Source of the DNA: a candidate division WOR-3 bacterium
GTDB taxonomy: Bacteria; Hydrothermota; Tepidihabitantia; Tepidihabitantales; Tepidihabitantaceae
Length of the DNA: 64,000 nucleotides
Assembly: GCA_039801085.1 (NCBI GenBank)
Contig: JBDRTY010000001.1
Location: forward strand, 310,852-374,851
Direction of reading: 5' to 3'
Shown here: positions 3,873-23,613 of the stretch, piece after piece
How positions within the stretch are numbered: position 1 is the stretch's first letter
Layout: each line of letters starts with the position of its first letter
Position numbers and translations under genes: made by a program
The notes under the pieces: model-generated
The model's database searches: none
What the model was told of the DNA's origin: nothing
What the model saw: only the letters and a program-made list of their open reading frames with translations

Positions 3873-4507
3873 GTCCCGGGCTTTTCGTCCGGGCGGTAAT
3901 GCTCGGTCTGTCTGCCGGCACATCCTGTCTCGGTTTCTGTCTGCCGGTGGTGCTGCCGGTGCTTGCCGGTTCGGACCGGGCCGGTTTTTATCCGGCAGCG
4001 GTCCGGCTGTTATCATTTCTGGCGGGCAGGCTGGTCGCCTATCTCCTTTTCGGTATTCTTGCCGGTCTTGCCGGCGCCCGGCTGAGCGGACCTGTTTTCC
4101 TGCGGACAGCAGCACTGCCGGTTATCTATCTCCTGCTGGGCGGATTGATGATAATTTACGGCATTACCGTCTTTGATCCGTTCACCCGGCTCAGGTTCTG
4201 CCGGCTGATTCAGCCCCAGCTCAATTCGGGCCGGTTTCCTTTTCTCCTCGGGCTGCTGGCAGGGGCAAGTCCCTGTCCGCCGTTTCTGCTCGCACTGGCA
4301 ACTGTTCTTGATTACGCCGGCGTGCTCAGCGGGGCGCTGTTCTTTCTGGTTTTCTTTCTGGCGACCTCGGTCTACTTTCTACCGCTGTTATTTGCCGGTT
4401 TTCTTGTCCGTTGGGATCCGCCCCGGAGCGCTGCCCGCATCGTGGCGGTGGTTACCGGATTTTACTTCGTGGTGCTCGCATTGCGCACACTGTTGAGCGT
4501 ATTTTGA
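3869..4507 (+). CDS. Polytopic membrane protein, DsbD/CcdA-like (thiol-disulfide transporter family) candidate
   Basis: About six hydrophobic helices, with Cys in SCLGFCLP and GASPCPPF motifs. Start overlaps the upstream gene (ATGA). Confidence 0.4.
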   Translation: MSPGLFVRAVMLGLSAGTSCLGFCLPVVLPVLAGSDRAGFYPAAVRLLSFLAGRLVAYLLFGILAGLAGARLSGPVFLRTAALPVIYLLLGGLMIIYGITVFDPFTRLRFCRLIQPQLNSGRFPFLLGLLAGASPCPPFLLALATVLDYAGVLSGALFFLVFFLATSVYFLPLLFAGFLVRWDPPRSAARIVAVVTGFYFVVLALRTLLSVF

Positions 4508-4610
4508 GTCCATTTCTCAGTTGCGTGAATTTATTTGACAAGAGAGAGAGAGAGTATAATTAAAATTAAGACGCAGCCGGATGCCAGCCCCGGCTGTGAA
4601 AGGAGATGCG

Positions 4611-4772
4611 ATGTTTGCAAGCTGGAAGGCGCTGATTGTCGCAACGGCATTCAGCGTGACTGTCATCGGGATTGCGTTTGCTGATGACAATCCCGACTCC
4701 GAAGGGTTGTGGCTATTTACCATGCAAAATGGTATGTGTGCTAACCGATGCTCAGTTTTGTCGCCTATGTAA
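4611..4772 (+). CDS. Small secreted/TM peptide (hypothetical)
   Basis: AAAGGAG lies 6 nt upstream of the ATG. Hydrophobic N-terminus. Sits in the AT-rich segment. Confidence 0.25.
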   Translation: MFASWKALIVATAFSVTVIGIAFADDNPDSEGLWLFTMQNGMCANRCSVLSPM

Positions 4773-5095
4773 GCATCATTACGACCAATGAACCGGCAGC
4801 CCGCTATGCTGCGGGTTATACCGGACCCGGGGGATTGTGCGACTTTCCGCCTTATTACTGGAGATGCAAATTCAGCCGTTTTGGACCGAATGGCAGTTAT
4901 TACATTCCGCGCGATTCCCGGTATCGCTGGCGGTTTTATGCCAAGCGGCAGGACCAGCTTACACAGCGATGGTATTACAGTGACTGGAGCAAAGAGATGG
5001 AATATTCTGAAGTCCGGCTGTTTGATGCTGATACTTTGAATATCTACCGCGACCGGCCGCCCGAGCCCATTCCGCCCTTCAGCTCTGAAGAGTAG
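4748..5095 (+). CDS. Hypothetical W/Y/R-rich small protein
   Basis: 115-aa ORF directly upstream of the 5107 gene. The competing 208-aa minus-strand ORF looks non-coding. Confidence 0.25.
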   Translation: MLSFVAYVSIITTNEPAARYAAGYTGPGGLCDFPPYYWRCKFSRFGPNGSYYIPRDSRYRWRFYAKRQDQLTQRWYYSDWSKEMEYSEVRLFDADTLNIYRDRPPEPIPPFSSEE

Positions 5096-15194: not shown

Positions 15195-15563
15195 ATGAAC
15201 AGTAACACCCTGAAAAGGGTTCAGAAATGGCAGGTCAAGACCGAGCCGGAGCGGGTTTGTGAACTGCTTCGGGCACTCCGGTCCGGGATGGTGAAAAACA
15301 CCGAGCTGATGCAGGAGCTTTTGGTGGAGATTGAGACCCGGGTCCGGCAGGTGCTGAATGACGCCGGGGTGGTGACCATCCTTTATCCCTTCTATCTCAA
15401 CTTCGGAAGGGAGGTGTTTGCCCGCCGGCTGCGGTTTGCCGGACAGTCACTTTTGATTGAGGTTGATGTGCTGCTGGAGAAATGGGTGCGCCGGGGTCTG
15501 GACCGGCAGGTGCTTGAGCGGATCCGGGATGAGGTGTTCACCCTGACCGAGCCGGAGGATTAG
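15195..15563 (+). CDS. Hypothetical protein
   Basis: AAAGGAGG RBS 5 nt upstream. 122 aa. Ends with TAG. Confidence 0.5.
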   Translation: MNSNTLKRVQKWQVKTEPERVCELLRALRSGMVKNTELMQELLVEIETRVRQVLNDAGVVTILYPFYLNFGREVFARRLRFAGQSLLIEVDVLLEKWVRRGLDRQVLERIRDEVFTLTEPED

Positions 15564-15658
15564 CCGGTTTTGTCGGTGCCGGATTTGCCTGGATGGTGAT
15601 TCTGGATAAAATTCTGAATGTGAAGGCGGTAGATACGCAAATGACGGAGGTGACAGTT

Positions 15659-16645
15659 ATGCGTTTCAGGACCGTTCTGATCCTGACCGTCCTCTGCCTC
15701 GCTGGGTGCCGGCTGTTTCCGAATCGTCCGGAGGTGATTAACTATCAAACCGGCGGTCAGGTTGAGGACCTGTGTATTTATGGCAACCGGCTGTTTATCG
15801 CCAACGGTGATTCCGGGGTGCTGGTGCTGGATGTGACCGAGCCGACCGCACCCGTCAAGGTGGCGGAGCGGAAGTTCCCTTACTATCACTTCCGAGCCAT
15901 TCACGCCTGCGATACGCTTGTTTTTGCCGGCACCGATTCGGGCCATATCTTCCGGTTCATCCTCCGGGACACCGCGCTGATCCTGGTCAGTCTGCAGGAT
16001 TTCACCCTTACGGGTCCGATTGTCGGAATCACCTACACCAAGTACCCGAGCTTTGCCTATGTGCTGACCCCGAAGAAGCTGGCGGTCTTCATGCCCGAAC
16101 CCTGGCATTACAAGGAGAAACTGCTTTATTACAGCGATGCGGTGGACATTGATGGCCGGAATAACGAATATGATGTCAAGGTTGCCCAGCGGAATGACGG
16201 GGTCAGGGTTTTCTTCGCCCAGCTGGTGGCGGATACGCTGGTAATAAACCACACCGATTTTTTTTACGATTACGAGGGTATGGAGGGGATATTCCGCAAT
16301 GACGCCTACATTGGCCAGCGGGGTCTGTTTATCGCCGAGGGCGCAGACGGACTCTGGGGGGTGGGGATCGGACCTCCCAACGGTGGGGATACACTTTACC
16401 GCTTTGACACCCGCGGATTTGCCTATGACGGCTGTGCCAGCGGGGAGTATGTGTATGTGGCGGATGGCGGCGGGGTGAGTGTGCTCAAGATGAGCCTCAG
16501 CGAGAAACTGCGGGAGGTGTGCTATCTGGAACTGCCGGGATTGACGAGAAAACTGGTTGCCTACAATGACATTCCGGGCAACCGGTTCTACATCTTTGCC
16601 GCCTCCGGCGCCGGCGGACTGCACATCTTCAAACAGTGGCGATGA
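15659..16645 (+). CDS. Lipoprotein with LVIVD-type beta-propeller repeats
   Basis: GGAGGT RBS. Lipobox LCLAGC. Repeats GVLVLDVTEPTAPV and YVYVADGGGVSVLKMS. The overlapping 354-aa minus-strand ORF was rejected. Confidence 0.55.
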   Translation: MRFRTVLILTVLCLAGCRLFPNRPEVINYQTGGQVEDLCIYGNRLFIANGDSGVLVLDVTEPTAPVKVAERKFPYYHFRAIHACDTLVFAGTDSGHIFRFILRDTALILVSLQDFTLTGPIVGITYTKYPSFAYVLTPKKLAVFMPEPWHYKEKLLYYSDAVDIDGRNNEYDVKVAQRNDGVRVFFAQLVADTLVINHTDFFYDYEGMEGIFRNDAYIGQRGLFIAEGADGLWGVGIGPPNGGDTLYRFDTRGFAYDGCASGEYVYVADGGGVSVLKMSLSEKLREVCYLELPGLTRKLVAYNDIPGNRFYIFAASGAGGLHIFKQWR

Positions 16646-17571
16646 GCAGGCGGTTGCTTCTGGTGCTGAGCGGACTGATTATTTCCGCCTGCTGCTGCCG
16701 GATTGAAAGCGGACAGCAGAAATTCAACGACTACCTGATCCAGCTTCAGAATGTGGACTTGGAGGCGATCGGAAACACCCGGTTTGATCTGGTGATTATT
16801 GACTATTCCCGGGACGGGAGTGAGGAGGGGCGGTTCAGCCCTGATGCGATCCGGGCGCTGAAGACCAGCCCTGGTGGCAGTAAGCTGGTGATTGCCTATC
16901 TGAGCATTGGTGAGGCGGAATCCTACCGCTGGTACTGGGACAGCCTGTGGGATGCGGATCGGGACGGCCGTCCGGATCCGGGTGCGCCCTCCTGGCTTGG
17001 TGATGCCAATCCGGACTGGCCGGATAATTACAAGGTCCGCTACTGGGAGCAGGGCTGGCAGGAAATTATTTATCTTTACCTCGACAGGATCATTGACGCC
17101 GGTTTTGACGGTGTCCTGCTGGATGTGGTTGACGCCTATGAATACTGGGGTCCGGAGGGAGAGAGCGGGGCAGAGTTTGCACCGGCAGCTTCGGAAATGG
17201 TCCGGTTTGTCAGCGGGATTGCCTCCTATACCCGGCAGGTGCGCGGCCGAAGCGACTTTCTGGTCATTCCCAACGGCGGTGAAGGTCTGGGGGAGTTTGA
17301 TGAGTATCGCACCGTGGTCTCTGCCATTCTGCGCGAGGATGTCTGGTATTACGACAACAGCCCGCAGCCGCCAGAGGCAACTGCCGAGGTCATTGACCGG
17401 TTGAATCGGTTTCACTCTGAAGGGAAGCCGGTTCTCGTGCTTGATTATGTGACCGAACCGGTGCTCATTGACGATTTTTACGCCCGGGCGGAGTCGATGG
17501 GTTTCATTCCCTATGCCACGGTGCGGGCGCTGGACCGGTTGACAATCAATCCGGGACACGAGCCGGACTGA
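16636..17571 (+). CDS. Glycoside hydrolase family 114-like (TM1410/PelA-hydrolase-type endo-alpha-1,4-polygalactosaminidase) lipoprotein
   Basis: TIM-barrel GH114 pattern (DY...VIAY.S.GE, GFDGV.LD.VD.Y). Lipobox ISAC. Confidence 0.5.
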   Translation: MAMSRRLLLVLSGLIISACCCRIESGQQKFNDYLIQLQNVDLEAIGNTRFDLVIIDYSRDGSEEGRFSPDAIRALKTSPGGSKLVIAYLSIGEAESYRWYWDSLWDADRDGRPDPGAPSWLGDANPDWPDNYKVRYWEQGWQEIIYLYLDRIIDAGFDGVLLDVVDAYEYWGPEGESGAEFAPAASEMVRFVSGIASYTRQVRGRSDFLVIPNGGEGLGEFDEYRTVVSAILREDVWYYDNSPQPPEATAEVIDRLNRFHSEGKPVLVLDYVTEPVLIDDFYARAESMGFIPYATVRALDRLTINPGHEPD

Positions 17572-17667
17572 AGGCGGGGAAATACTTGACAAGGGGTATT
17601 TGTTGAAGCATATTTTATTAAGTGCCAAGTAAGCCGACGCCGTTAATCAGTGCTGTTAGGATAAGCT

Positions 17668-19279
17668 ATGGCTAGTTTACAAGATTTTTCATTGATAACA
17701 TCCGAAATCGCTTACTTAAAGAAAAGATACAGAATAAATGAGTTTTCCCGTGCGTTTATATATGCAGTATTAGAAAAACTATACGAAATCGATATAGATG
17801 AAATAGAAAATTATGTCATAGACGGCGCTTATGATTTTGGCATTGATGCTTATTATTGGGAAGATGCAAGAGCCGACGGAAGAAAAACTATAAATATTTT
17901 TCAATTTAAACATACTGAAAAATTCGAAAATGCGCAAAAAGCAGATGCCTTTCGAGAACGGGATGTTAATGATATTATTGTCAAACTTGAGAGAATCTGG
18001 CATAAAGATGGGTCATTACTGAAATCCCCCAACAGGCGGTTCACGCAGTTAGTCCAGGAGATGTGGGATGCTTTTAATAAAGGGGTAATACAAACGAAAG
18101 TTTGGCTGATTTCTAACTATATTAATTCGATTAGCGATAAGAATAAAATTAAGCATTTCGAAGTGACTGTGCGAGAAAAATTTAAAGCAGATCTTGAAGT
18201 ATGGTCGCTTGATGAATTGGTTTCATTGTTTATAAAAAAAGATTTTCGACCTGTGGATTTGAATTTGCAGTTGAGCGGCAGGCGGTATTTTGATACTACT
18301 ACCGGACAGGTTCGAGCTGTTGTTGGCGTAATTAATGCACATGAACTAATAAAAAAAGTTATCAACGAAAATGATGAATTGAGGGAGGAGATATTTAACG
18401 AAAATATAAGAGTATACTTAACCAGAAATACAAAGGTTAACAGCCAAATTTACAGGACAATAGAAGCCGAACGTGAAAATGCTAATTTCTTTTTCTATAA
18501 CAATGGAATAACAGTAATTTGCGATAGTTTGGTACATGCAAATACAGATAGCCCCGTAGTTGCATTAAAAAATTTTCAGATAGTCAATGGAGGACAAACG
18601 ATTCATGCTCTTTATGAGGCTTATAAAAACAATTTATCTGAGAACATTAAAAACATAGACTTGCTTCTAAGAATTTACGAAGTTAAAAATAGAGATATAG
18701 GACAAGCTATTGCGCGATACACTAACACGCAAAATCCCGTTAGAAGCAGAGATATAATGTCGAACGATCCCGTACAAATTAAAAAAAATAGATGCCGAGA
18801 AGGCGGGGCAAGTAATACTAGCTTTTTATCTGGAGAAGCCAGGAAGCGCTAAGAACAAGAAAAGGGAAATCTTTGGCGATTATTATCAAGAAATATTTGA
18901 TGAAAGCAAAATCGATGCTAAATATGTTCTACTGCCTTATCTGCTTTATGAAAAGATAAATCAAGATATAAGACGAATAAGACAGGAGGAGAAGAAATAT
19001 AAAAGTAATCCTAAAAAGTTGAATGCGTTAGCCAAAGATGAGTTTGTAAAACACGCAGGTTATTATTTATTATTGGGGTTAAAATTTTTTGCTAACAAAA
19101 AGGGGTTAGATTTGAATTTAGATAATACAGGCAAGATCTTTAAAAATTACAAAGATGTTAAAAAAGTTTTAAGAGATATTGTCAAACAACGTATAAGTAG
19201 GTTTCAGGAGAATTTAGTTGATTTGTTCAAAAGTGATGATTTAGTCGAAGAATTGAGGTGTAAGATCTACCAAATATAA
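17668..19279 (+). pseudogene. AIPR-family abortive-infection (phage resistance) protein, disrupted by a 1-nt frameshift in an A8 homopolymer (18781..18788)
   Basis: N-terminal DGAYDFGIDAYY, and the core NFQIVNGGQTIHALYEA (NGxQT). The C-terminal AIPR region IDAEKAGQVILAFYLEKPG...EIFGDYYQEIF continues in the -1 frame from the A-run through to 19279. Confidence 0.65.
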
Positions 19280-19297
19280 ATATAAATAATAGATACC

Positions 19298-20494
19298 ATG
19301 ATTCTAATTTCTATACTAGGAGTATTGGTAATTGTGTTATTTGTAATGTGGTTATCTCGAAGTTCTCAAAAAGCTGCACGTTCAAAAATACACCCCAAGG
19401 GCGAACGGCTAGTAGATGACAGTCACGGTATCTGCAAAAGTGCAAATTTACAATGCGCTGATGATAATGCAGTAGTAGCAGCTACCAATAACGGTTATAT
19501 AATAAATCCTCAAAGCACATTTCCGTTGACCATTTATAACGTTGATCGAGAAACTGCAATTATAATAAAAAAGCTACTTGATACAAAATGCTTTATTGGC
19601 AATGCGCAGGAACTGGTTCCTGTAATTCTTAAAACAAATCTTCGCTGTAAAGAGATCGAGGACTACATCAATACATTCAAACCGCAATATTTTCGTAAAA
19701 TTGAGGAATTGAAACAATCTTCGTCTGAATGGCAATCTGCATCTGAAAAAGATAAAGAGGACTTACTTGCATATTTTCGCGAACAGGCAATTGAATCTCT
19801 GGATATTAGACCATACTGTGACTTGGAGGTATTATTTGAATGTGAACCAGAGGATTTTACCATTGACGACGCTTTGCTTGAGCGATACGGCTATGATGTA
19901 CTACAGGTATATTTAAAATATGCAGGTGATATTAACAAAGTGCGAATCCTACCAGCCGGTCACTTTGAACGTAAAAAATTTGACAGGTTAGTAGAGTTGG
20001 GATTAGCAATAAATGGATATGAAATTGATTCGAAAGCACTTTTAAGCTCGCTGACACTTAAACAGCTTAACGAAATTGCAGCCAGTTTGCAGGAGAAGCC
20101 ATTTAGTCGCAAAAGCAAGGCAATAGAATTTCTAGCGTCACTGCCCGACGTGAGGGGAAAAGTTGGTACTGTGATTGCTCTTAGAGAAGTTTTCCAATTG
20201 CGACCGCTACCGCCAGAATTCTCGCACATAGACCTGAAGAAAATATCTGATATATGGTGTTATGTTTCTGAGATTGCCGAGCTGATAACACATACTTATC
20301 ATATGGGGAATTATGCAAAACAGGACATGCAGAATAATCTTAGTTTGTCCGTAAATATTAGCGAGTGGAAGATTTTGACTGCAGGTGATTCATCGTGCCC
20401 ATATTGCAAGCGTGCTGCGCTCAAAGTATATCCGGCAAATCAGTACCCTAGAGTTCCTTTGCACATAGGATGTAGATGTACAGTAATAAATTGA
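19298..20494 (+). CDS. Hypothetical membrane-anchored protein with a C-terminal Cys/His motif (CPYC...PLHIGCRC), in an operon with the AIPR gene
   Basis: Starts 18 nt after the AIPR stop. One N-terminal TM helix. The C-terminus resembles the conserved motif of phage Mu-F/SPP1 gp7 family proteins. AT-rich like the AIPR gene. Confidence 0.5.
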   Translation: MILISILGVLVIVLFVMWLSRSSQKAARSKIHPKGERLVDDSHGICKSANLQCADDNAVVAATNNGYIINPQSTFPLTIYNVDRETAIIIKKLLDTKCFIGNAQELVPVILKTNLRCKEIEDYINTFKPQYFRKIEELKQSSSEWQSASEKDKEDLLAYFREQAIESLDIRPYCDLEVLFECEPEDFTIDDALLERYGYDVLQVYLKYAGDINKVRILPAGHFERKKFDRLVELGLAINGYEIDSKALLSSLTLKQLNEIAASLQEKPFSRKSKAIEFLASLPDVRGKVGTVIALREVFQLRPLPPEFSHIDLKKISDIWCYVSEIAELITHTYHMGNYAKQDMQNNLSLSVNISEWKILTAGDSSCPYCKRAALKVYPANQYPRVPLHIGCRCTVIN

Positions 20495-20625
20495 CATATA
20501 AGTTTTTTAAATAATTTCAGAAAAAGATATATTCAAGATGCTAAAATTATTCGGCATGGTATCTTCATGATGCCTGTGATTGGGATCACTTACTACGGGT
20601 CAAAGATTGATAAGGTTTTGTCAGG

Positions 20626-20988
20626 ATGAGAGCGAATACCCGCCGGGTGGTGGCGTTTATCGCCGGGAAGCTGATTGCCGGCAGCGGGGCGTGGGCAATC
20701 TATGACTGTGAAGAGGCGCGGAGCTGGCGGTTTTCCGGCAGTGTTTCACCGGAGCAGATCCTTGTTTATGACCCGGAGCAGAGGTGTATGATCAGCGGTT
20801 ATGGTGAGGAGGGCTGTTACTCAATTTATCACCACGGTAACCGGCACCATATTGAGCTGAAGATTGAGGGCAGTGGCTTTGAGGGATATGACTACGGTTC
20901 GAGGTCCCGTTTTTCCGGAAGTGTGGAGGGCAGTTCGGTCGTGATCCTTGACGGTCAGGAGCGGAAGTATTATTACTTTACAATTTAA
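20626..20988 (+). CDS. Hypothetical small protein with an internal duplication
   Basis: Two units, WRFSGSVSPEQILVYDPEQR and SRFSGSVEGSSVVILDGQER. High GC. Confidence 0.4.
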   Translation: MRANTRRVVAFIAGKLIAGSGAWAIYDCEEARSWRFSGSVSPEQILVYDPEQRCMISGYGEEGCYSIYHHGNRHHIELKIEGSGFEGYDYGSRSRFSGSVEGSSVVILDGQERKYYYFTI

Positions 20989-20991
20989 TTT

Positions 20992-23613
20992 TCAGGGTTC
21001 GGTGACAACAATCAGCCGGTCGGGTTTGATGTCTTTGAGGGTCACGGTCTTGCCCGGGGCAAACCGGACCTGAACCGTGACCGGCCGGTCCGAGCTGCCC
21101 AGGCCGAAGTGGGCTAAAAGGGAGTTCTGGCTGGTGGTGCCTTTCCCACCCTCAATCTCGCGGATATAACGCTTTCTGCCCTGAATCACCGTGACCCGGG
21201 CGCCAATACCGCAGGCGTTGTGTTTTGTGCCGACTACCCGGACCTTGAGCCAGTGGTTGCCGTTTTTCGTGTCGTTGCGGAAGAGGCGCAGGCCGGAGCC
21301 GGAGCCAACCACCAGATCGAGATCGCCGTCGTTGTCAAAATCAGCCAGGGCACAGCCCCAGCCGTTGAAGACCCGGGTGCCGGAAAGATAGGTGGCTTCC
21401 GCAAAGGGGTAGTTGCCGAAGAGGTTCTGCCAGCCGGCAGTCGCCTGGCGCGGTGCGGGGTTGAGCTGGTTGAGGTAGAGGAAGGAGCGCCGGTTTTCAT
21501 AAACGGAGGTGATGTAGAGGTCGAGATCGCCGTCGTTGTCTAGGTCGCCAAATGCCGGATCAGAGTGGGTCTCTTCGTAGCGGATGCCAAGCCGGGCGCG
21601 GCGGTCAAGGAAGCGGGGCTTCGCCTTCGGTCCGCGGTTTTCGTAGAGCAGGGAGCGGTCGGAGAATTCTATGTAGCGGGGATGGGCAAGGTTGGCACAG
21701 AAGAGGTCGAGGTCGCCGTCGTTGTCAAAATCTGCCCAGACCGAGCCGATGGTATGGCCAAACCAGCCGGAAATCTCATTGCCGGCAATCCCCAGTTTCG
21801 GGGCAAGGTTGGTGAAGGTGGAGTCGCCGTTGTTGTGCCAGAGGAGGTTCTGGCAGAGGCGGTAGTTGGCAACATGGCAGTCCGGATCACCGTCGTCATC
21901 GTAATCACCCCAGTTGACACCTCTGCCCGCAAGGTCCTCACCATAGGGCGGAGTGATGCCGGCACGGGTGGTGATGTCCTGAAATCTGCCCTGCTGGTTT
22001 TGATAGAGCCGGTCCGGATACCAGGTGTGTTTTTCCCAGTTTTCGTAGTTGGCACAGTAGAGGTCGAGCCAGCCGTCAAGGTCAAAGTCGGCAGCAGCAC
22101 AGCCTTCGGTCGGATAGGGGTCCGAGGGGTTGCCGAGCGATTCGGTGGCGTTGCGGAATCTGCCGCAGTGGTTGAGGAGGAGCCAGTCCTGAGTGTCCGC
22201 ACCGCAGATGTAGAGATCGAGCCAGCCATCGTTGTTAAAGTCGGCAAAGATGCCACCCCTGCCCCGGATGCCCGTAAGTCCCGCTGAATCGGTGAGTTCG
22301 GTGAAGTGTCTGCCGGAGTCGTTGCGGAAGAGGCGGGAGCCGTTGAGCAGGAGGTCTTCAAAGCCGTCATTGTTAAAATCGCCCCAGGCAACCCGGGATT
22401 CCCGGCAGCCGGCAAGTCCGGCCGAGTCGGTGATGTCGGTGAAGACCGGTCCGGTGTAGGAGAGTTGCTGGCGGGCAAGCATAAGCTGCCGGGCAGGGGG
22501 GATGCCGAGCCGCTGGAGCGCGGTGTCTGCCCGGGCAGACCAGTAGTTGCGAGAGTCGCCGAGTACGAGCGCGGTCAGGTAGCAGAGCCGGGCGCTGTCG
22601 GGCCTGCCCAGCCGGGAGTAGGCATCGCCGAGCAGGGACCAGAAGGGTGCAGGGGTGAATTCGTTTTCGGTGTCCCAGGAGAATTGTTGCAGGGCTTCGT
22701 AAAGCACGGGCAGTGCCTCCCGGGGGCGGTCCTGAAGGATGAGCGCCTCAGCGAGCGCGGCACGGGCAAGTCCGGCAAGGGGCGGGTATTCGAGCTGCCA
22801 CTGGGCAGGGGGTTTGTTTTTCGGCTTTTTCGCTCTGGGCGCCAGCTGGAGCGCACGGCGGGCATACTGTTCCGCAAGCCGGGGCCGGAATCGGAGCCGG
22901 TTGTAGAGGGCAGCGGCATAGCGGTAGCGGAAGGGGTCCAGGGAGTCGTCTTTGAGCATCTCCCCGGTGAAGTGGGCAAGACCGAGGGTGTCGTTCAGGG
23001 CGTAGAGTGAGCTCAGGAGATAGATGTAGAAGGTCTGGCGCCATTCGGTCCTGGGATAGCGGGCAAGGAAGCGGGAGATGACCAGGACTTTGGCGGTGTC
23101 GTTGGTCCAGACCGGATAGAGGGAGTCGTAGAAGGCAGAGCCGATGAGTTCATAAACCGGGGCTGAGTCCGGATATTTGAATGCCAGGACGCTGAAGGCG
23201 CGCCGGGCACGGAGGGAGTCTTCGCCGAGGACAAAGCCGGCGTGGGCAAGGAGGAGGTTGCGGTAGGTGGTGTCAATGAAGTAGCCGCCGGCTTCAGCGC
23301 GGATGAGCTGGCGGACCGAGTCGAGCCGGGCGGAGTCCGGGCGGTGAAGGTTGCAGAGCGCCTGCCATCTGCCAATGACCGCCGAGTCGTCGTCGGGCCT
23401 TGCTTTCAGCACCTTTTCCCAGAAGTAGAGGCTGGAGTCGTACCGGCGCCAGTGATCATAGACCCGGGCAAGGTCTTTGAGCAGTGCCGGGTTTTGCGGC
23501 TGGCGCTGGAGCCGGGCGTAGTAATAATCGGTGGCAGCCGGATAGTCCTGCCGGGCAAGAAAGTCCTGCAGTGCCGGCCGGGCGGTGAGGATGAGGAGTG
23601 AAATCAGGAGCAT
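20992..23613 (-). CDS. TPR + FG-GAP/VCBS-repeat + ASPIC/UnbV-domain protein (CRTAC1-like)
   Basis: N-terminal TPR-like helices. Seven repeats of ADFNNDGWLDLY / DFDNDGDLDL type. C-terminal UnbV/ASPIC-like segment. Confidence 0.6.
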   Translation of the reverse strand: MLLISLLILTARPALQDFLARQDYPAATDYYYARLQRQPQNPALLKDLARVYDHWRRYDSSLYFWEKVLKARPDDDSAVIGRWQALCNLHRPDSARLDSVRQLIRAEAGGYFIDTTYRNLLLAHAGFVLGEDSLRARRAFSVLAFKYPDSAPVYELIGSAFYDSLYPVWTNDTAKVLVISRFLARYPRTEWRQTFYIYLLSSLYALNDTLGLAHFTGEMLKDDSLDPFRYRYAAALYNRLRFRPRLAEQYARRALQLAPRAKKPKNKPPAQWQLEYPPLAGLARAALAEALILQDRPREALPVLYEALQQFSWDTENEFTPAPFWSLLGDAYSRLGRPDSARLCYLTALVLGDSRNYWSARADTALQRLGIPPARQLMLARQQLSYTGPVFTDITDSAGLAGCRESRVAWGDFNNDGFEDLLLNGSRLFRNDSGRHFTELTDSAGLTGIRGRGGIFADFNNDGWLDLYICGADTQDWLLLNHCGRFRNATESLGNPSDPYPTEGCAAADFDLDGWLDLYCANYENWEKHTWYPDRLYQNQQGRFQDITTRAGITPPYGEDLAGRGVNWGDYDDDGDPDCHVANYRLCQNLLWHNNGDSTFTNLAPKLGIAGNEISGWFGHTIGSVWADFDNDGDLDLFCANLAHPRYIEFSDRSLLYENRGPKAKPRFLDRRARLGIRYEETHSDPAFGDLDNDGDLDLYITSVYENRRSFLYLNQLNPAPRQATAGWQNLFGNYPFAEATYLSGTRVFNGWGCALADFDNDGDLDLVVGSGSGLRLFRNDTKNGNHWLKVRVVGTKHNACGIGARVTVIQGRKRYIREIEGGKGTTSQNSLLAHFGLGSSDRPVTVQVRFAPGKTVTLKDIKPDRLIVVTEP

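Follow-up and report, generated by a model that had tools for sequence, protein, structure and literature searches.

We analysed a 64,000-nucleotide stretch of DNA (hereafter the window) from a candidate division WOR-3 bacterium (contig JBDRTY010000001.1, positions 310,852 to 374,851), in which an AT-rich island of about 3 kb carries two adjacent genes on the forward strand. Gene 1 belongs to the AIPR/AbiU family of abortive-infection genes and is decayed, and gene 2, which is intact, encodes a 398-residue protein of an uncharacterised, stand-alone and horizontally mobile family, in which a membrane anchor precedes a region resembling the N-terminal domain (NTD) and SAP domain of FAN1, followed by a domain of the phage MuF type. 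An earlier note on this DNA had proposed that both genes form a co-transcribed anti-phage module. The features of the locus are the following, where AF2 stands for AlphaFold2 and ORF for open reading frame:

17586..17614, forward strand: promoter-like site TTGACA-17-CATATT, 10 of 12 consensus positions (consensus scan; conserved in the related contigs L107, L108 and L109)
17644..20600, no strand: strain-specific AT-rich insert, carried as cargo at a variable hotspot that follows a GH114 gene (GC content and divergence from related contigs)
17668..18852, forward strand: AIPR/AbiU pseudogene, N-terminal ORF of 394 residues, out of frame past codon 373 and ended by a premature stop (Pfam AIPR, PADLOC AbiU)
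18781..18788, forward strand: A8 run at the lesion, junction of a 28-codon deletion and +1 frameshift (translations of the two frames; alignment with seven homologues)
18788..19279, forward strand: C-terminal AIPR remnant in the +1 frame (PADLOC AbiU; aligns with the C-termini of intact AIPR proteins of 556-566 residues)
19298..20494, forward strand: gene 2, intact, 398 residues, membrane-anchored protein with FAN1-NTD/SAP and MuF domains, uncharacterised stand-alone family (ORF, 84 homologues, 542 profile hits, AF2)
19298..19381, forward strand: predicted N-terminal transmembrane anchor, residues 1-28, followed by a basic disordered linker, residues 29-54 (AF2 helix 2-28; hydrophobic segment in the family)
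19460..20197, forward strand: soluble N-domain and FAN1-like NTD/SAP region, approximately residues 55-300, with SAP-like helices at approximately residues 240-290
20231..20491, forward strand: MuF (Mu F / SPP1 gp7)-like domain, residues 312-398, with predicted zinc ligands C367, C370, H389, C392 and C394 (hhalign, PF04233 in relatives, BFVD)

The placement of gene 1 in the AIPR family, made in the earlier note from its motifs, was borne out. The sequence contains IDGAYDFGIDA and VNGGQT, which are of the DGxxDxxIDA and NGGQT type, and it matches Pfam AIPR (PF10592) with an E-value of 1e-36, at profile positions 1-131 of 308 only. The PADLOC model AbiU aligns with the first frame over positions 23-361 of 537 (E = 2.8e-40) and with the second frame over positions 393-534 of 537 (E = 2.7e-6). 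The earlier note had treated 17668..19279 as a single ORF; this interval comprises 1612 nt, a length not divisible by three, and thus cannot be one reading frame. Translation stops at 18852, 446 nt 5' of gene 2, and the rest lies in the +1 frame, so the 18-nt gap claimed between the two genes is that of the out-of-frame remnant only.

To describe the lesion we aligned the joined frames with the seven nearest intact relatives, which have 556-566 residues at 54-58% identity and come mostly from Patescibacteria. A block of 28 residues (KLQQEL..GWYYERKKYE.RD..I..), highly conserved in all seven, is missing from gene 1 exactly at the frame change, and an intact ORF of approximately 560 residues carrying the GWYYERKKY block is absent from the locus, where the ORF ends at 394 residues. 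Because this block is gone and the frame shifts at the A8 run, gene 1 is a pseudogene, that is, a dead AIPR gene. Sequencing error was considered as the origin of the frameshift and rejected, because a homopolymer error cannot delete 28 codons and because the Logan assembly of SRR30574052 (L098), which may share its sample of origin with the window, matches it over 21 kb at 100% identity, lesion included.

The surroundings of three close AIPR relatives were also inspected. Two of them (L100 and L101) lie between the Mod and Res genes of type III restriction-modification (R-M) systems, which fits the published location of AIPR genes, commonly encoded within R-M operons (PMC2292703), and the third (L099) stands alone near an Mrr-like gene. 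At L100 (3068-6692) and L101 (3009-9322) the AIPR gene is found beside a type III methylase (TypeIII_RM_meth/N6_N4_Mtase), joined in L101 by a ResIII helicase-nuclease. Gene 1 is like the AIPR/AbiU family in its strong match, its level of identity and its two retained motifs, whereas it differs in the lost GWYYERKKY block, the frameshift and the absence from the window of the R-M partners (methylase, ResIII) that two of the three relatives have.

Gene 2 is intact. Its start was set at the ATG at 19298, and the resulting N-terminus aligns with the N-termini of the homologues. The AF2 model, computed with 43 family sequences, reached a predicted local distance difference test score (pLDDT) of 89.7 and a predicted template modelling score of 0.80, with disorder limited to residues 27-54 (pLDDT < 50). 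The transmembrane helix that the earlier note had placed at the N-terminus agrees with the modelled helix 2-28 and with a hydrophobic segment in 75 of 88 full-length family members, other members of the family using a TM2 domain instead; gene 2 probably encodes an inner-membrane protein with one N-terminal helix, and the basic linker after this helix suggests that the bulk of the protein lies in the cytoplasm. The central region folds in the model like the NTD/SAP DNA-binding part of FAN1, from which DNA binding may be expected. A sequence search of the PDB with the family profile returned nothing significant.

The last 87 residues contain a long helix with an (A/T)HT(E/Y) motif, a conserved tryptophan and the zinc ligands CxxC...PLHxGCRC. 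The resemblance of this C-terminus to Mu F / SPP1 gp7, which the earlier note had pointed out, holds: when the family profile was compared by hhalign with the phage MuF protein that is encoded directly after a portal gene on the IMG/VR contig L103, it gave a probability of 93.7% (E = 1.8e-7), PF04233 is matched by 15 of 43 family members (best E = 7e-7), and Foldseek against the viral models of BFVD returned almost solely minor capsid, head morphogenesis and MuF-like proteins, with weak E-values. The window protein itself has no Pfam match at E <= 1 and scores 14.7 bits against TIGR01641, for which the cutoff is 39.65. As for the motif quoted in the earlier note, CPYC and CRC are present, whereas the intervening part reads VPLH..CRC and not PP.H..CRC. 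Residues C370, H389, C392, C394, N70, E119, Y123, T333, Y334 and W357 are invariant in the family and C367 is nearly so, C367, C370, H389, C392 and C394 making up the predicted zinc site; the window copy retains 17 of 17 invariant residues. An HNH-like nuclease was entertained for the CxxC...H..CxC pattern and set aside, since only nine residues follow H389, which would be too few to accommodate the alpha-helix and the metal ligand that a beta-beta-alpha-Me site requires. Gene 2 joins known domains into a new architectural variant.

The family is large. A word-index search found 84 relatives and an exhaustive profile search 542, these being representatives at 50% clustering, with 232 of them at E <= 1e-30; the proteins are mostly about 400 residues long, all unnamed, and spread over many phyla. 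A few carry additional domains: VRR-NUC at the C-terminus (L010 and L042, both from Nitrospira, and P0096), HIRAN at the N-terminus (L044, L048 and P0107) or SNase at the N-terminus (P0110). Residues 476-672 of L010 match the nuclease region of human FAN1 (E = 4e-19), so that L010 is, by its sequence, collinear with FAN1 (SAP ... VRR-NUC) with the MuF domain interposed. In both Nitrospira loci (L010 9821-11863, L042 8147-10204) the approximately 270 extra C-terminal residues correspond to the FAN1 VRR-NUC region, giving a protein composed of anchor, FAN1-like region, MuF domain and nuclease. Purifying selection acts on the family: among close pairs, the ratio of nonsynonymous to synonymous differences (pN/pS) amounts to 0.08-0.18 for the three groups that have diverged most, and to 0.35-0.55 where a pair shows no more than 10-12 differences.

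For the genomic context we fetched 97 gene 2 loci from genome and metagenome collections, which represent 67 non-redundant groups. When both parts of the AIPR gene were searched by tblastn, no match was obtained in any of the 97 loci, 40 non-redundant ones of which extend at least 1.7 kb upstream; the two closest relatives of gene 2 (57% identity) have no AIPR either, and conversely no gene 2 relative lies beside the close AIPR relatives (0 of 3 loci). All-against-all clustering of the 754 ORFs within 6 kb revealed no neighbour conserved across the family. Beyond near-identical genomes it yielded one small cluster of RAYT/IS200-like ORFs from about four to five lineages. Because there is no conserved neighbour and no AIPR near the relatives, gene 2 is a stand-alone gene. 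Its family is horizontally mobile: in 15 of 36 loci the GC content of the gene 2 homologue is lower than that of its flanks by 5 points or more, and in none is it higher, and in the deltaproteobacterial metagenome-assembled genomes (MAGs) L011 (9750-11100) and L079 (6900-8100) the homologue alone makes up an island of about 1.25 kb with sharp borders, at 22-33% GC in surroundings of 63-65% GC.

In at least four independent loci (L011 8223-8753; L079/L018 6332-6844; L034 12029-12499; L044 approximately 4456-4866; L047 approximately 2349-2624), a RAYT/IS200-like ORF with an HUH motif (HxH ... Y..NP) lies about 1.5 kb or less from the gene 2 homologue, in L079 directly upstream of it. As the sole recurrent neighbour, this ORF might be linked to the movement of the single-gene islands. 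The earlier note had asked whether relatives of gene 2 lie near AIPR or other defence genes: they were never found near AIPR, and some do lie beside other defence-type genes, which are scattered among the loci (TIR, PIN, DpnII restriction endonuclease, AbiLi, SspH, PD-T4-7, reverse transcriptase, Cas1, Schlafen-AlbA2 and toxin-antitoxin-like pairs). Schlafen AlbA_2 genes are those of L111 and L085. An RmuC-family gene is present near the homologue in two unrelated loci (L004 2695-3879; L054 11101-12327), in L054 immediately downstream of it. Searches of the neighbours found no portal, terminase or capsid genes beside approximately 40 longer gene 2 loci, and tblastn against collections of 50,697 phage and 72,556 plasmid records gave no relatives; the contigs of IMG/VR share with gene 2 only the C-terminal domain, over the last 40-160 residues of the protein.

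In the window, the GC fraction drops from 0.56-0.60 to 0.29-0.41 between approximately 17600 and 20600 and recovers afterwards. The island (17644-20600) averages 0.352 against 0.551 for the whole window, where the lowest 3-kb interval elsewhere is at 0.513, and GC at third codon positions (GC3) is 0.31 in the AIPR reading frame and 0.32 in gene 2, compared with 0.63-0.77 in the flanking host genes, including a 120-residue ORF at 20626-20988. The deviant composition and codon usage described in the earlier note are therefore confirmed. For the GH114 protein upstream of the island, a relative at 98% identity is annotated in MAGs of candidate division WOR-3, and three related WOR-3 contigs that carry this relative (L107, L108 and L109) show 97-98% nucleotide identity to the window. 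The match is collinear as far as base 17643, 24 nt 5' of the AIPR start codon, beyond which the sequences diverge completely. The cargo that replaces AIPR in L107 encodes a 263-residue protein with weak matches to GIY-YIG, DUF4357 and RAMA (Pfam, at or below curated cut-offs) and partial matches to the PADLOC candidate PDC-S14, while L108 and L109 end inside the diverged sequence. Since related strains match to 17643 and then carry a different gene, the site is a strain-variable hotspot. The island is foreign, horizontally acquired accessory DNA, as the earlier note had supposed from composition.

The right border of the island was placed by GC only, at approximately 20580-20620; an exact-protein look-up of the 120-residue ORF, made to find related strains with the right junction, returned the same contig only. 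At the borders we found neither a tRNA nor an integrase, and flanking direct or inverted repeats did not exceed chance; an Rfam scan of the window gave tRNAs alone. Promoter-like sites are no more numerous in the region than expected by chance (consensus scan). In the intergenic sequence after the GH114 gene (17586-17643; L107 10930-11060), the promoter-like site is kept where the downstream gene differs (the GIY-YIG/DUF4357/RAMA, PDC-S14-like gene), and one fixed putative promoter may drive exchangeable cargo at the hotspot. The 120-residue ORF combines a hydrophobic N-terminal segment with repeated F-SGSV motifs. It lacks matches in Pfam, PADLOC and PHROG as well as homologues in the fetched loci, including the 97 gene 2 loci, and with its GC3 of 0.63 it appears to be a host gene outside the island. 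The GC-rich flanks contain ORFs of 100-350 residues, antisense or in alternative frames, that overlap real genes (15560-17628 on the reverse strand; 21191-23601 on both strands), and these are typical high-GC artefacts and not genes.

Several known systems share parts with gene 2. Phage MuF proteins belong to the virion, where they are associated with the portal; they use the portal-terminase system and carry effectors into cells (PMC5512222). In turn, the phage MuF / SPP1 gp7 family (PF04233, TIGR01641) has in common with gene 2 the helix motif, the tryptophan and the zinc ligands of the last 87 residues, whereas gene 2 lies outside phage head modules, was not found in phages, has an anchor and a FAN1-like region, and falls in its window form below the curated Pfam and TIGR01641 thresholds. 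FAN1 and its bacterial homologues resemble the central region, and L010 and P0096 have in addition the FAN1-type C-terminal VRR-NUC; the window protein, by contrast, lacks VRR-NUC, has MuF at the spot that in L010 lies between SAP and nuclease, and is membrane-anchored, mobile and AT-rich. The MuF polymorphic toxins of temperate phages have an N-terminal MuF, a C-terminal toxin, an immunity gene and a prophage location (Jamet et al. 2017, PMC5576092). Some relatives of gene 2 likewise join MuF to variable enzymes (VRR-NUC, SNase), but in the common form MuF is C-terminal, and no toxin domain, immunity gene or prophage context was found. Membrane-anchored superinfection-exclusion proteins and candidate single-gene defences such as those of the PADLOC PDC-S series are similar in being single, mobile, AT-rich membrane-protein genes in variable hotspots, and the alternative allele of this hotspot partially matches PDC-S14; gene 2 differs in having no sequence relation to PADLOC models and no prophage context.

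Taking these observations together, the best explanation is that AIPR and gene 2 lie side by side as two items of cargo in a single hotspot, of which one has decayed, and do not form a system. We consider it moderately probable that the island holds an AIPR pseudogene and an unrelated stand-alone gene as hotspot cargo, gene 2 encoding a membrane-tethered, DNA-binding conflict protein. According to this proposal, the first item would be an AIPR/AbiU-type abortive-infection gene truncated by the internal loss of about 28 codons together with a frameshift, and the second an intact single gene of a family that moves horizontally. The gene 2 protein would be held at the inner membrane by its N-terminal helix, with its bulk on the cytoplasmic side, and would act alone; the most plausible option is that it would bind foreign DNA as it enters, or block it, at the inner membrane face, and alternatively its MuF domain could titrate phage portal or packaging components. 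Relatives bearing VRR-NUC or SNase would add cleavage. The combination of membrane anchor, FAN1-type region and MuF zinc domain, with the occasional nuclease and HIRAN fusions, suggests that the protein takes part in conflicts, either with DNA entering the cell or with phage packaging, which we put forward tentatively, as a possibility below even chances. The more specific idea, in which gene 2 founds a new single-gene anti-phage or anti-foreign-DNA family whose FAN1-type region and captured MuF domain intercept DNA or titrate the portal, with nucleases in some relatives, is doubtful.

A number of points weigh against the proposed conflict role and against independent cargo. The topology follows from charge distribution alone (positive-inside rule), TM-scores to viral MuF models are low (approximately 0.2; Foldseek, BFVD), and the gene 2 protein has no recognisable catalytic domain and ends at the MuF domain. 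The PADLOC search suggested in the earlier note returned AbiU for gene 1 and nothing for gene 2 (PADLOC-DB v2, no match at E <= 0.01 and no model), L010 being likewise unmatched, and no experiment or described homologue ties the family to defence. The neighbours of gene 2 homologues are mostly housekeeping genes. Finally, given their near-equal GC3, it is possible that AIPR and gene 2 were co-acquired from one donor.

The alternative that survives best is that gene 2 is no conflict gene and serves cellular DNA metabolism, as a FAN1-related accessory factor of repair or recombination or as a tether between DNA and membrane. The FAN1-like NTD/SAP fold, the collinearity of one relative with FAN1 including VRR-NUC, the housekeeping character of most neighbours and the presence of RmuC, XseA and FtsK genes near some loci are in agreement with such a function. 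However, gene 2 is strain-specific here, with other cargo at the site in related strains, its composition is strongly deviant and AT-rich in many hosts, and its distribution is patchy across phyla without conserved synteny, and we regard this explanation as unlikely. Still less probable is a selfish or toxic element, either of the addiction type or mobile cargo, possibly mobilised by HUH (RAYT/IS200-like) transposases. The sharply bordered single-gene islands of AT-rich DNA and the nearby RAYT/IS200-like ORFs speak for it, as do, near some loci, toxin-antitoxin modules, an excisionase-like gene and a fragment of a recombinase; against it, the window has no RAYT-like ORF, the island has no flanking repeats or tRNA, no antitoxin or immunity partner is conserved, and the common form of 400 residues has no recognisable toxin domain.

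That gene 2 is the leftover or domesticated MuF/gp7 head gene of a degraded prophage, with no host function, is very unlikely: the homology of its C-terminal domain to phage MuF and the BFVD matches, nearly all to minor capsid or head morphogenesis proteins, speak for such an origin, but the longer loci are devoid of detectable portal, terminase and capsid genes, the phage and plasmid collections hold no match and viral contigs share the C-terminal end only, the family is under purifying selection, and the conserved membrane anchor and FAN1-like region are both absent from L103, the one phage MuF examined. The two-gene system of the earlier note, in which a MuF-like membrane protein would act as sensor or decoy for an AIPR effector and which, if true, would be a new defence architecture, is not supported by the evidence and is largely refuted, the least probable of all these explanations, for although the genes are adjacent, on the same strand of the same AT-rich island and nearly identical in GC3, with one promoter-like site upstream and no terminator-like site between them, AIPR is absent from the gene 2 loci and the two closest relatives, the three close AIPR relatives sit in type III R-M operons or alone, and the window AIPR is frameshifted and has lost a block common to all aligned homologues.

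A practical lesson from this locus is that a match to an Abi family in an AT-rich island may correspond to a dead gene. The intact neighbour belongs to a widespread and unannotated family, in which a domain of phage virions (MuF) is part of a cellular, membrane-anchored protein with a FAN1-like region, and which behaves like conflict genes do, that is, as AT-rich, single-gene, strain-variable inserts with some nuclease fusions. If its function were established, gene 2 might show how hosts put domains of phage head proteins to new use and might open a first way into the function of the MuF domain outside virions.

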